Source of the DNA: Candidatus Babeliales bacterium
GTDB lineage: Bacteria > Babelota > Babeliae > Babelales > JACPOV01
Direction of reading: 5' to 3'
Assembly (NCBI GenBank): GCA_050250855.1
Contig: JBFWNW010000002.1
Span: 192,001-256,000, forward strand
DNA length: 64,000 nt
Both the position numbers and the translations under genes were made by a program. Numbering within the stretch: position 1 is the stretch's first letter; every line of letters begins with the position of its first letter. Shown here piece by piece: positions 12,144 through 57,095 of the stretch. Below the pieces are notes generated by a model. The model was not told the DNA's origin and did no database searches. It worked only from the letters and a program-made list of their open reading frames with translations.

Positions 12144-12260
12144 TAAAAAAAACTATTTTTAGATTAATGATATTTTTTTATTAAGTTTAATGGAATAGTT
12201 GGTTAAGTAAAATAAATATTTTTTATAGTATTATTTTGTTTATTATATTTTTAACAATTC

Positions 12261-12683
12261 ATTATCTCACAGTCCCTCTCCGGGACGGGACCAGCCCCTT
12301 TTGCTTGTACAAAAGGGCTGGACAAAAATACACCAACATGCTGTTGGATTGCACTCTCGCTCAGACATCAACCACTCACTCTTCGGGTTTTCAACCCTCG
12401 ATTTCAGGTCGATGATTCGCTACCGGCGTGAATGTATAAAAAATAGTTTAATGCACCGGTACGCTCATCTGTTTGAGAGCTTCTCAGTTTTCTTGCCCGG
12501 CGTAGCTTGATGCGAAGCCTGGGTAAAAAACTGGAAGCCGAGTTATGACCCTTCGATACAATTTCGATTTCATCGAAATCACTCAGGATGAGCGAAAGCC
12601 CTTGCGTGCCCGTCTGGGTGTTAAGGGTATTGGGCACGCAATACCTTTGTGCCCTGCACCCGGCATGAGGGTGCCATAAGATA
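12261..12683. repeat. Composite palindromic element 1 (modular, MITE/BIME-like)
   Basis: GC-richer intergenic block; about the first 200 bp is shared with 27124-27306, the right end is the reverse complement of 35912-35975, and internal modules recur at 27309 and 36018-36066. Confidence 0.9.
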
Positions 12684-12702
12684 ATATAGAGAAAAGTAGT
12701 TT

Positions 12703-13164
12703 TTATTTAAGAGAAGTATTTAATTTCTTTAATAAAAATAGTTCCTTCTTATGCATCACCTTATAATCTTCATCTTTAATATGGTCATAACCAAGTAAAT
12801 GACAAATGCCATGTACCAAAAGAACTTGCATGCGCTTGTAAAAAGGCACACCAAGTTCTTTTGCAGCTTTTTGTACATATTCTAAAGAGATGATAAGATC
12901 ACCTAAATTTTTTTCATCAGCTGCGCTTGCATGGATGCGTTCACCAGCTTTAAGCTCAGGATAAAAAGGAAATGACAAAATATCGGTTGGTTTATCTTTG
13001 TGCCGATATTCTTTATTGTAATGGTGAATAGTTTTATTCGTTGTCAGCCAAATACCAAGATCAAAATCACTATAATCAAGTGCATGCAAAATGGTTTGTG
13101 CATCATCTTTAAGTTTTTTAAGATCAAGGGATATGGAGCGTTGTGTATTTTTTATGGTGATCAT
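12703..13164 (-). CDS. ybeY: rRNA maturation endoribonuclease YbeY
   Basis: YRHKDKPTDILSFP, LGDLIIS, HGICHLLGYDH motifs. Confidence 0.95.
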   Translation of the reverse strand: MITIKNTQRSISLDLKKLKDDAQTILHALDYSDFDLGIWLTTNKTIHHYNKEYRHKDKPTDILSFPFYPELKAGERIHASAADEKNLGDLIISLEYVQKAAKELGVPFYKRMQVLLVHGICHLLGYDHIKDEDYKVMHKKELFLLKKLNTSLK

Positions 13165-13190
13165 ATTAAACGAGTTTAAAAGAATTTTTA

Positions 13191-13276
13191 GTTCGCACCC
13201 TTCGACAAGCTCAGGGCGAACGAAGATAAAAGTTTTGATATAACCGTTCGTGCTGAGCTTGTCGAAGCATACGAAC
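13191..13276. repeat. Inverted doublet of the CTTCGACAAGCTCAG module (REPIN-like)
   Basis: gttcgcacccttcgacaagctcagggcgaacg (13191-13222), 21-bp spacer, ccgttcgtgctgagcttgtcgaagcatacgaac (13244-13276). Confidence 0.93.
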
Positions 13277-13296
13277 AGGTATATTACCTTATAAAT

Positions 13297-14148
13297 TTAA
13301 ACAATAATACAGCAAGTAGCTTTTTGTTGTTCAACTGGTTGTTCTGTAGGATTTTTAGCTTCTTTTGTTTTTTCTTCAATAAAGCTGAATCCTTCTTGAT
13401 AGCTTTCATAATCTTTTTTGCCTTCTACTGATTGCAAAAGCTGAGCCATTCTTTTTTGTGCAACAACAAGCGGCGTTTCACCTTGTTTGTTTTTTTGCAA
13501 AAATGCTTTAGCTGGTATTTGTTTTAAGCAGTCCAGAACTTTTTTGTTAGGATTCATCGCAAAATGATGCAAAACTGTATTTTCTTGCTCATCCAACTTT
13601 TCAGCATAAGGAATTATAGTATATTTTAGGGCAAACCTTAGATCGTCTTGCGTAGCAGAAGGTGCAAACGTTGGCAATGGATTATGATATTTACGTAAAA
13701 TTTGCTTGCAAGCAATCAGTTGGTTAAAAAGTTTAAGTTTTGCTGGATCAAAATTTAAATCATCATCAGAAAATGCAGTTTCACTGGTGAAAAGTTCTTT
13801 TACTTGGCTATTGATAATGACAAAAGCGTTTTCTTTGCTTTTATTTTCTTTATTAAAGAGATCTGCGCTGCAGAATGACGCAACTACTTCAAGCATTTCC
13901 GGGTCAGCCTTCTGTGCAAAGGTATGCAAAAGTGTATTGCCATCTTTATCTTGTTCTGTTAAAGAAAGTGTATTCAATTGCAGAGCAGTTCTTAAATTTT
14001 CAGCGCGATTATTTGCCGTAGATTCAGTGATCCATTGCTGTACCTGCTGTTGATTGCCGTTGTGCAAATGAGGAAATTCAGTTTGCTGTTCTGTTGCGTA
14101 AAGAGAACATAGGCAAAGAGCTGCTGAAACTATTACTAACTTTTTCAT
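13297..14148 (-). CDS. Secreted ankyrin-repeat protein with C-terminal CaaX motif
   Basis: Signal peptide; QDKDGNTLLH, ENTVLHH, NKQGETPL ankyrin motifs; ends ...TCCIIV-stop. Confidence 0.82.
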   Translation of the reverse strand: MKKLVIVSAALCLCSLYATEQQTEFPHLHNGNQQQVQQWITESTANNRAENLRTALQLNTLSLTEQDKDGNTLLHTFAQKADPEMLEVVASFCSADLFNKENKSKENAFVIINSQVKELFTSETAFSDDDLNFDPAKLKLFNQLIACKQILRKYHNPLPTFAPSATQDDLRFALKYTIIPYAEKLDEQENTVLHHFAMNPNKKVLDCLKQIPAKAFLQKNKQGETPLVVAQKRMAQLLQSVEGKKDYESYQEGFSFIEEKTKEAKNPTEQPVEQQKATCCIIV

Positions 14149-16636: not shown

Positions 16637-16655
16637 AATTTTTTATCTAGGTTGT

Positions 16656-16732
16656 GTTCGTACCCTTCGACAAGCTCAGGGCGACTGAATAATCGGTCAT
16701 ACTGAGCGAGGGTTAACCCGAGTCGAAGTATA
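16656..16732. repeat. Inverted doublet of palindromic modules upstream of valS
   Basis: gttcgtacccttcgacaagctcagggcgac followed by inverted variant cggtcatactgagcgagggttaacccgagtcgaagta (matches reverse complement of 37478-37516). Confidence 0.9.
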
Positions 16733-16769
16733 AAATAATAAAATTTAAGATAAGTCGCTAAAATTAAGT

Positions 16770-27123: not shown

Positions 27124-27600
27124 ATTATCTCATGGCCCTTACCCAGGGCGGGGCCAGCCCCTTTTGCTTGTACAAAAGGGCTGGACAAAAATACACCAAC
27201 ATGCTGTTGGATCCGCTTGCTCGCTCAGACATCAACCACTCATCCTTCGGCTTCAGGTCGATGATTCGCTACCGGAGTGAATGTATAAAAAATAGTTTAA
27301 TGCACCTTGACCCTTCGATACAATTTCGATTTCATCGAAATCACTCCCTTCGACAAGCTCAGGACAGGCAGGGTGAGCGCACAGAACTATACTTAGTATC
27401 AAAAATAAGAAATTTACATAAATGAATTCATTATAACGCGCTCATCTTGAGTGTTTTTCCGTTAGGAAAAATGTATCAGCCTGCCCGGCGAAGCTTTTTA
27501 GTCCGAAGAAGTTTTTAACGAAGGCGGATTATGCGAAGCCTGGGAAAGATAAAGCGCTTGAAAAGAGGCTGGTCCCGTCCCGGAGAGGGACTGGTAAGAT
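27124..27600. repeat. Composite palindromic element 2 with imperfect terminal inverted repeats and nested modules
   Basis: Left end atctcatggccct...ccagcccctttt; right end aaaagaggctggtcccgtcccggagagggactg is the reverse complement of the left end of element 1; nested inserts at 27346-27368 and 27478-27543. Confidence 0.92.
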
Positions 27601-30897: not shown

Positions 30898-31035
30898 GCT
30901 TTATCCTTCCCAGGCTTCGCATAATCCGCCTTCGTTAAAACTTCTTCGGACTAAAGAGCTTCGCCGGGCAAGCTGATACAATTTTCTACGCAAATCACTC
31001 AGGATGAGCGTATATTTTTATGCGCTCATCTTGTC
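30898..31035. repeat. Compound palindromic module (reverse complement of 27438-27555)
   Basis: ccttc[ccaggcttcgcataatccgccttcg...cttcgccgggcaagct]gataca...cactcaggatgagcg followed by a truncated inverted arm cgctcatcttg. Confidence 0.9.
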
Positions 31036-35911: not shown

Positions 35912-36390
35912 ATCTTACGGCGCCTTCATGCCAGGCGCAGGGCATAAGGGTATTGCGTGCCCAATACCCTTAACACAAGGGCACATAAGAGAAGATCTCT
36001 TATGTATCTCTCTGCACTCATAACTCGGCTTCCAGATTTTTTCCAAAAATCTGAGAAGCTCTCAAACCTATGAGCTTTCAAGGTGCATAAAATTAAATTG
36101 ACTCTTCGATACAATTTACTACGTAAATCTTTCAGAGTGAAAGCGGAATAAAGATAGAAATTATATTTATGCGCTCATCTTGCCTGTCCTGCCGTGCCCG
36201 ACGTAGCTTTTATGCGAAGTCTGGGAGTTTATCGAAGGGAGTGTTTTTCCGCTAGGAAAAATGTATCAGCCTGCCCGGCGAAGCTCTTTAGTCCGAAGAA
36301 GTTTTAACGAAGGCGGATTATGCGAAAGCCTGGGAAAGATAAAGCGCCTGAAAAGGGGCTGGCTCTGTTCCGAATAGGGCCATGAGTAAT
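35912..36390. repeat. Composite palindromic element 3 with triple nesting
   Basis: Left end is the reverse complement of the element 1 right end; right half matches 27438-27570; nested inserts at 36183-36239 and 36192-36225. Confidence 0.92.
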
Positions 36391-37440: not shown

Positions 37441-37607
37441 GAGCTTATCGCAAAATTAAAAAACTTTTGCAGTTTTATACTTCGACTCGGGTAAAAACCC
37501 TCGCTCAGTATGACCGGGTTCTCTGTCTCCCTGCCTGTCCTGAGTATTCGCGAAGGGAGCGAGCAGAGTGAGTCGAAGGGTAAATTTATGATTTTTGCGA
37601 TAAGCTC
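37441..37607. mobile_element. 167-bp MITE with 15-bp terminal inverted repeats and TTA target-site duplication
   Basis: tta|gagcttatcgcaaaa...ttttgcgataagctc|tta; interior is an inverted doublet of the palindromic modules. Confidence 0.8.
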
Positions 37608-44854: not shown

Positions 44855-45356
44855 TTATTCCGTTCGCCCTGACCCCTCGTCAGCTTTGCAGCCGCTCGGG
44901 ACTAAAGGCAATTCGAGGGGAGCATGCCCTGAGCTTGTCGAATGGGTCGAAGGGTGCGAACGATTTATAATATTTATTTGTTGCTTAACTCTATTATTTT
45001 AGTCCAATTGCCATTAATTAAAGCGTTTTTCTTTTCTCGTGACCATTCTTTAATTTTTTGTTCAGCAATTAGTGCATCAACTCTTTCCTCAAATTTTTCT
45101 AAAAATACTAATTCTATAGGGAGGCGAGTTGATGTATAGCTTGCATATTTTTTATCATTATGTTCAGCTAATCTCTTTTCAATATTATCTGTATGCCCAG
45201 TATAATATGAGTTGTCTGAACATTTTAGTATATAAACATAAAAATTCATTATGAGTTCGTATCCTTCGACAAGCTCAGGACGAATGGAGTGAAGTGCTGA
45301 GCGAAGCGTTTACTACTGAGTATTAATCGAAGTATCAGGATGAACGGAGAATAATT
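44855..45356. mobile_element. GIY-YIG nuclease gene enclosed by inverted palindromic modules (candidate autonomous element)
   Basis: Left arm ccgttcgccctg...agc...gtcgaagggtgcgaacg (44860-44962); right arm gttcgtatccttcgacaagctcaggacgaatgg (45255-45287) plus more module fragments to ~45347. Confidence 0.65.
44974..45249 (-). CDS. Small GIY-YIG endonuclease (YhbQ/UPF0213-like)
   Basis: FYVYIL...YYTGHT...KRLAEH...AEQKIK.WSR.KK signature intact. Confidence 0.93.
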   Translation of the reverse strand: MNFYVYILKCSDNSYYTGHTDNIEKRLAEHNDKKYASYTSTRLPIELVFLEKFEERVDALIAEQKIKEWSREKKNALINGNWTKIIELSNK

Positions 45357-56856: not shown

Positions 56857-57095
56857 TACTTCGCATAAAGCTTCGTATGGCAGGCCATTCTTTTTTAAAG
56901 GTTGGTAATAATAAGTGAAATAAACTAAAAGAAATAAAAGCGAAGTATGCCCTTCGAAGCCTTGGCGTAGTAGGGCAATTTATAAACTATTCAATTTCGC
57001 TAACCTGTTCTTCGACTTGTCCGAAATAACTTGAAAAGCGACGGCGGAAGCTCGAAGAGCGTAGTAGAAAGCTTCGTATGGCAGGCCATTCTTTT
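56857..57095. repeat. Palindromic modules downstream of tRNA-Glu including a 28-bp direct repeat
   Basis: aaagcttcgtatggcaggccattctttt at 56867-56894 and 57068-57095; inverted partner tgcccttcgaagccttggcgtagtagggc at 56948-56976. Confidence 0.8.

Follow-up and report, generated by a model that had tools for sequence, protein, structure and literature searches.

The movement of 20-60-nt repeats has been a long-standing question for REPs, cyanobacterial SDRs, and organellar palindromes. Single-strand transposition of the REP/RAYT and IS200/IS605 type is oriented, takes place 3′ of a short specific sequence, and leaves no target duplication. The SDRs of Nostoc are reportedly mobile hairpin repeats of 21-27 nt, nested in one another, for which no enzyme is said to be known. 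Ssn nucleases and their NTS/SRM hairpin repeats were described recently (Chenal et al. 2025, PMC11893778), and SsnA, a small GIY-YIG enzyme, binds single-stranded DNA at its hairpin and makes the cut a few nucleotides 5′ of it. REP/BIME and REPIN elements with their RAYTs are treated in two reports (PMC3116915, PMC3733652), the second of which describes REPs inserted within other palindromes. Nested short palindromic repeats have also been described from the organelle genomes of Volvox carteri (Smith and Lee 2009, PMC2670323).

The window is a stretch of 64,000 nt (C2:192001-256000) in a 1.22-Mb, 11-contig genome (G000; ~36% GC, 95% complete), whose intergenic regions are occupied by GC-rich islands of short repeated modules. 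These intergenic modules are best explained as one superfamily of structured DNA hairpin repeats. The most frequent module in the islands is a two-arm element, each arm of which is a hairpin that has GTTCGC/GCGAAC as its outer stem, CCCT/AGGG as its inner stem, and CCTGAG-CYYG-TCGAAGG as its core. The strand that reads CCTGAG is called the G strand here, and is the TG^AG strand of an earlier, sequence-only reading of the window. In a sister (T-type) host, TGGT/ACCA stands in place of CCCT/AGGG with the architecture unchanged, and long-form hosts carry an internal stem-loop between CCTGAG(TG) and (TGTA)TCGAAGG. Many internal loops are C-GNA-G, which we take to be typical of very stable DNA mini-hairpins. 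Nearest-neighbour DNA folding of the host core gave weak structures only and did not predict a tandem G-A geometry. A text search of the literature for the core motif returned unrelated primers only. Among the 12 papers listed in a separate search, none deals with repeats of Dependentiae.

The smaller hairpins inserted into these hosts are P (~33 nt) and m (23 nt); two others, S and Q, are less clear as inserts. The genome has 36 canonical right halves: P interrupts 3 of them, 8 belong to nested-host or S composites, and the other 25 have no interruption. The elements of the window that bear on the nesting are as follows (coordinates without a prefix are those of the window).

12493..12523, plus strand: P in the apical loop of the AT-rich hairpin of a ~440-nt mosaic element; 4 copies of the element have P and 3 lack it.

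12547..12594, minus strand: module A, uninterrupted, reading CCTGAGTG, an internal stem-loop, then TGTATCGAAGGG; empty allele.

13190..13277, plus strand: canonical uninterrupted two-arm element, an empty short-form host; a second lies at 16652-16737.

27309..27380, minus strand: H3-type long-form host (module A) with the 23-nt mini-hairpin m (27346-27368) set into it at CCCTG^AG; empty copy at 12547-12594.

27439..27557, plus strand: H3b host with its 5′ slot, CTTG^AGTG (27449/27450), empty and a 66-nt P+Q unit (27478-27543) in its 3′ slot, TATC^GAAAG; the empty 3′ slot is found at C1:308438.

30905..31010, minus strand: H3-type host with its 5′ slot empty and P+Q (30910-30974) in its 3′ slot.

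36172..36347, plus strand: H3b host of the 27439..27557 type with both slots filled and three levels of nesting.

37475..37585, plus strand: two-arm element with an H4-type arm broken at CCCTG^AG by m (37534-37557); empty arms at C1:414520, C1:355374, and C4:62658.

44861..44964, plus strand: composite adjoining the nuclease gene, made up of an outer canonical hairpin, the 49-nt hairpin S (44872-44920), AG, and an inner m-like hairpin; one of ~10 copies.

44974..45249, minus strand: gene for a 91-aa single-domain GIY-YIG nuclease (UPF0213-like), with host-type hairpins on both flanks.

45255..45345, plus strand: a canonical arm and an H2-type arm, both uninterrupted, on the other flank of the nuclease gene.

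The three levels at 36172..36347 consist of m (36183-36239) at CTTG^AG, P (36192-36225) inside m at CCTG^AG, and P+Q (36268-36333) at TATC^GAAAG. In the 27478-27543 unit, Q is a further hairpin in the loop of P. The ~440-nt mosaic element has ~8 copies, three of them in the window (12234-12675, 27126-27591, and 35912-36380), which are 73-88% identical and differ in the modules that they carry or lack as a whole: P, a P-like unit of 35 nt, a module of 60-88 nt, and a complete two-arm element of 150 nt.

The sequence-only reading had reported five inserts between (C/T)TG and AG, each beginning with CC or ACC and ending in GGG. A base-by-base check found all five exactly where they had been placed, on the strand named, with the ends described. 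Their lengths are 23 nt (27346-27368, minus strand), 57 nt (36183-36239), 34 nt (36192-36225, which sits within the preceding insert), 24 nt (37534-37557), and 49 nt (44872-44920). The two empty alleles given there, at 12581-12587 and 27441-27453, are likewise as claimed, and the left flank of the first insert (27309-27345) is identical to that of its empty copy in 37/37 nt. Uninterrupted empty copies of four of the five occur elsewhere in the genome: besides the m inserts of module A and of the H4 arm, the 36183-36239 insert is m carrying P in an H3b host (empties at 27439-27477 and C1:308467), and 36192-36225 is P in m (empty at C1:113676). Alignments of empty and filled copies leave a breakpoint ambiguity of 0-1 nt, which bears out the statement that any target duplication would be limited to one G. 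The fifth insert, S, has the coordinates and the TG^AG junction ascribed to it and does not clearly follow the rule: the only empties of the S composite (C1:84072, C4:155706, and C1:319950) put the break 1-4 nt downstream of TG^, and no copy of the host implied for it was seen.

Junctions were then surveyed across the genome by self-BLAST, used instead of a 12-mer repeat profile that was swamped by AT-rich low complexity, and by a split-alignment search of 100 GC-rich islands, in which contiguous left and right arms (each at least 17 nt) were compared with a left arm, at least 15 nt, and a right arm. The search gave 31 filled loci, paralogues included, of which 8 lie at YTG^A compared to a background of 1.87% of junctions (576/30800), an excess over chance when each event has 3.1 candidate positions on average; counted by class, ~7 of ~15 are at YTG^A. 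A ninth filled locus at this junction, C2:170264, is offset by mutation. A pattern search for P returned 31 matches, made up of 26 nested copies, 2 P-like hairpins that adjoin apparent tRNA ends, and 3 false ones, and the addition of the copy at 36268 brings the nested copies to 27. Thirteen of these are at YTG^AG, their hosts belonging to four classes (canonical, H2, m, and m-like), seven at C^GAA (five H3-type hosts, one T-type host, and one at C1:93846), three form the internal stem of T-type hairpins, and four lie in the loop of the AT-rich hairpin of the mosaic element. Empties for the C^GAA slot exist at C1:308438, C1:382889, and C4:31660, Q is located in the apical loop of P, and m occupies the 5′ junction of 4/13 H3-type hosts. 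P is on the same strand as the host core in each of the 13 P-in-host copies, 12 of which parse as YYT(G/T), insert, and AG/AT. The junction rule is better put as 3′ of YYTG and before A, as in a P-like unit at C1:282305 (CCTG^AAAT) and the 60-88-nt module at C1:308547 (CTTG^A).

YTG^AG is therefore a hot spot and the main nesting position, at the 5′ edge of the host loop, with ~10 event classes at the YTG^A junction; C^GAA is the second position, at the 3′ edge. The proposal of a fixed TG^AG site stands as recurrence at one host-hairpin junction and fails as a sole site, as there are at least three nesting positions (YTG^AG, C^GAA, and apical loops) and about half of the event classes in the genome-wide tabulation lie away from the hot spot. 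A site-specific insertion mechanism without target duplication had been proposed from these junctions; "fixed site" is too strong, and what the data support is a preferred junction at which insertion is precise, oriented, and free of duplication. Slippage between adjacent hairpins, named in advance as one of the explanations that would undo the proposal, is not supported, because the donors are not adjacent copies. The nesting at an exact shared position and direction points to a precise way of inserting very short pieces of DNA.

The similarities of inserts and of hosts do not run in parallel. The P units at C4:84222 (canonical host) and C1:283605 (H2 host) are 31/33 identical, in flanks that match at only 8/21 and 15/24 positions, and those at C2:228196 and C3:220093 are identical in 34/34 nt, tail included. 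Conversely, C4:84222 and C4:56215 belong to one host class (flanks 15/18 and 16/22) and differ in their P variants (25/33). The mini-hairpin m is found in three H3 subtypes with different internal stems and in H4, each of which also exists empty. Because insert and host similarities disagree, P must have entered at least four host classes separately, and several independent events are needed. P begins with a 5′ tail of 4-5 nt (CCGT, CCAT, CGGT, CAGT, CTGT, CAT, or CGT, before GCCCG) that tracks the P variant and not the host, and is therefore part of the unit; the reading of this tail (CCGTG and so on) as a target duplication was rejected on the same ground. A rolling-circle reading of the P ends, AGCCTG..AGCCTGG, was dropped since it fits only the C^GAA copies, and filled hosts are unlikely to have converted empty ones by homology-driven gene conversion, given that some host pairs share only CCTG and AG. 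The copies have diverged, with m loops that vary among variants and mosaic elements that are ~73-88% identical. No polymorphic slot was seen in the Logan contigs of four public runs, the best two of which come from one study, one of them perhaps the source of this DNA; these contigs break at every module and are thus uninformative on presence/absence variation. The divergence of the copies, together with the lack of a polymorphic site, means that the activity may be ancient.

Besides uvrC, the genome contains two small GIY-YIG genes. The one in the window is flanked by host hairpins at 44861-44964 and 45255-45345, and its paralogue (C1:93273-93533, 59% identity) is flanked by T-type hairpins (C1:93178-93760), which suggests two co-evolving nuclease/hairpin pairs in one genome. 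For the 44974-45249 protein, Pfam gives only GIY-YIG, and among solved structures the best relatives are 1zg2 and 1ywl, both UPF0213 proteins. As for other candidate enzymes, PF01797, the Y1 (HUH) transposase family, has no match in this 95% complete genome, neither an IS110 transposase nor a reverse transcriptase was found in it, and its recombinases are two Xer-like proteins only.

In a sample of 201 Dependentiae genomes, the short core was found in 70 (a reversed-pattern control gave 0) and the host hairpin in 79. A homologue of the nuclease is present in 77 genomes; 54 have both, 25 the hairpin alone, 23 the nuclease alone, and 99 neither, so that 25 of the 79 hairpin-bearing genomes yielded no homologue with the query used. 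The odds ratio of the co-occurrence is 9.3 (Fisher p 2e-12), in a sample whose related genomes are not independent and with exact patterns that miss variants. Expanded hosts occur in 41 genomes, mostly as long forms with a covarying internal stem-loop at one fixed place. P-like hairpins sit exactly at CCCTG^ in G033 (11 copies), G147, G054 (2), G144, and G171, and P is on the host-core strand in five other genomes as well. P-in-host composites with covarying stems are present in four other genera: the P-like stem changes between GAC/GTC, GGC/GCC, GTC/GAC, and GCC/GGC, and between CCC/GGG and CAC/GTG, one position showing all four Watson-Crick pairs. In G185, short hosts are nested at the apex of long hosts, and in G174 a host-type hairpin is placed at CCCTGAG^CTTG, 2 nt off the site of the sequence-only reading. 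The sister genome G170 has S composites at 88% identity, although its genes are only 70-77% identical. Across G170 and a second sister, G055, genes are 65-77% identical to those of this genome, with values of up to 92% in short repeat matches only, and the sisters are thus too distant for a comparison of orthologous intergenic slots. A search of all species genomes for interrupted canonical hairpins, for which perfect outer stems were required, gave 14 loci, which were long forms or one nested host type, none with P. Many composites are old, long-lived, and spread as whole units too, because other genera have them, with stems that covary, and so does the sister genome. Long-form hosts with the core CCCTGAG..TCGAAGGG were also found in assemblies of Gallionella, Sideroxydans, and Ferrigenium (L002, L003, L006, L007, and L011), and the family therefore crosses phyla.

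Compared with the described systems, this one shares with Ssn a small single-domain GIY-YIG gene that has a dispersed, oriented hairpin repeat on both flanks, paired nuclease and hairpin specificities, and an enrichment of both in symbionts (PMC11893778). It may differ in protein clade, the nearest solved relatives of the window protein being UPF0213 proteins and the clade named for Ssn cd10448, and it differs in that the host core, CCTGAG..TCGAAGG, with stems GTTCGC/GCGAAC, does not fit the NTS/SRM consensus as given there (a CGTC tag and an ATTCCC..GGGAAT palindrome) when compared by eye; hairpin-in-hairpin nesting is not described in the Results and Discussion of that report (PMC11893778). 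As in REP/RAYT and IS200/IS605 transposition, the inserts are oriented, lie 3′ of a short sequence, and are free of duplication, and the hairpin-based recognition and the mosaic clusters recall REPs. Unlike those systems, the genome has no Y1/HUH transposase and no GTAG or CGTC tag, and its units are single hairpins of 23-34 nt rather than two-ended elements. DDE-mobilized MITEs differ in turn, as the inserts here have no target-site duplication and a junction ambiguity of 0-1 nt. The insertion of short palindromes into one another, here to as many as three levels (36172-36347), is a likeness to Volvox; however, the Volvox repeats are AT-rich and can have either orientation, and the portion of the source used reports no fixed junction for them (PMC2670323), whereas here orientation and junction are constant (13/13 P-in-host) and a nuclease gene co-occurs. 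Nested short palindromes are thus already known from Volvox and REPs and, reportedly, from Nostoc SDRs, which are said to be of another phylum and other sequences; here the junction rules are unusually clean and the candidate enzyme is testable. The system offers a clean handle on the movement of such repeats, with a defined junction, a constant orientation, empty and filled copies in one genome, a repeated occurrence over many genomes, and a candidate enzyme of 91 residues.

The reading that we favor, and hold only tentatively, is that the hairpin repeats receive smaller hairpins in a precise, oriented, and duplication-free manner, with the GIY-YIG nuclease as the candidate that nicks the host at or next to the junctions. 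Host hairpins would fold in single-stranded DNA, the nuclease would nick them at or next to the YTG^AG or C^GAA junction, and another hairpin would be copied or ligated in at the nick; composites, once formed, would spread also as whole units. If the core folds with the pairs C-G, C-G, T-A, G-A, A-G, and G-C, the G^A slot and the C^G slot would each be 5′ of one partner in the same A-G pair, and tandem sheared pairs at the G-A and A-G steps, to judge from their general chemistry, would place both slots on either side of one pair. Cutting at the junction by the candidate enzyme is plausible as an inference, and in the long-form host the distance from CCTG^AG to the internal stem downstream of it is 4 nt, a spacing that would be compatible with an SsnA-like cut a few nucleotides upstream of a hairpin. 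Because GIY-YIG enzymes act on DNA by hydrolysis and not by joining, the reading has to assume a ligase or polymerase step as well. Against the nuclease reading, the closest solved relatives are UPF0213 proteins and not SsnA, SsnA cuts outside its hairpin and not in the loop, and selection on a tolerated structural slot would explain equally well why P-in-host composites are conserved across genera. Were the nuclease to cut at the slots, small GIY-YIG single-strand nucleases would go beyond restriction-like cutting to the shaping of repeat architecture; were it not to, the system would still be a well-defined case of structural slots in a DNA repeat family. A more far-reaching form, in which a structure-specific GIY-YIG enzyme nicks folded hosts on either side of the G-A/A-G step and so drives the oriented, duplication-free insertion of 23-66-nt hairpins, with no HUH, DDE, or serine/tyrosine recombinase and no reverse transcription, and with "fractal" hairpins throughout the phylum as the outcome, is doubtful. 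If true, it would amount to a pathway of ultra-short DNA mobility that dispenses with all of these enzymes.

An alternative without dedicated insertion, which we consider rather unlikely, is that a functional element tolerates arms at CCTG/AG, at TC/GAA, and at its apex, so that a few ancient rearrangements, multiplication of whole units, and selection for the fold mimic a fixed site. It would account for the covarying internal stem-loop at one fixed place in most expanded hosts of other genomes, for the compensatory changes in the P-in-host composites of the four other genera, and for an S composite that is found at ~10 loci and is conserved in the sister genome, and it sits well with the fact that no recent or polymorphic event was found in the Logan contigs, broken as these are at every module. 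It is less easily reconciled with near-identical P units, 5′ tails included, in hosts that differ right beyond CCTG and AG, with two P variants in one host class, and with the presence of m in three H3 subtypes that exist empty too. The 27 nested P copies are distributed over six kinds of host context, which means that P must have moved on its own.

Template switching by a polymerase, with no specific nuclease, is in our judgment improbable. A polymerase would stall at the foot of the host loop, copy a complete hairpin from another template, and return, which would explain why the inserts are complete hairpins, why the junctions share 0-1 nt without duplication, why all sites are at stem/loop borders, and why apical-loop nestings are found too. 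However, one phosphodiester bond has been used in ~10 event classes and in other genera, a precision that would be unusual for such a process, the orientation is constant, and the donors are not neighbours: the P copy next closest to 36192 is of a different sequence, and an identical one is on another contig.

The notion that the elements act as RNA, as a structured ncRNA or ribozyme with variable peripheral arms whose nesting reflects RNA-level modularity, can draw on a conserved unpaired core between covarying helices and is very improbable, given that no Rfam family matched at gathering score and matches at E up to 10 were at chance level, that inverted pairs of elements put the core on both strands, that C-GNA-G loops, presumably a motif of DNA mini-hairpins, are frequent, and that the elements are linked to the gene of a DNA nuclease. 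In the window, Rfam 15 gave only two tRNAs at gathering score and no element matched a covariance model; at E up to 10, positions 12200-13300 gave chance-level matches only, none of them credible. A hammerhead ribozyme was rejected, its core, CUGANGA..GAAA, failing to fit by eye.

Several observations lie apart from the nesting itself. P-like hairpins at C1:56594-56625 and C1:286589-286636 directly adjoin the apparent CCA end of tRNA genes, and similar GC-rich hairpins are present in the window at 56858-56881 and 56940-56976, 3′ of tRNA-Glu; the tRNA-adjoining P-like hairpins may be terminators or a source of P-type modules. Four contigs of G170 (L015-L018) end inside an m unit (100% identity over 24-25 nt, as at window 37534-37557) within a T-type element, and the G170 assembly breaks at these repeats. 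A joint from 27477 to 27544, which skips 66 nt (side 27), was rejected as a variant, since it is explained by the paralogous empty copy at C1:308438. In run X2, a contig passes from 42807 straight to 43248 and so lacks 440 nt (57 nt are shared at the joint, and the shorter side has 255 nt), which makes it a deletion variant of a coding region in a second sample.
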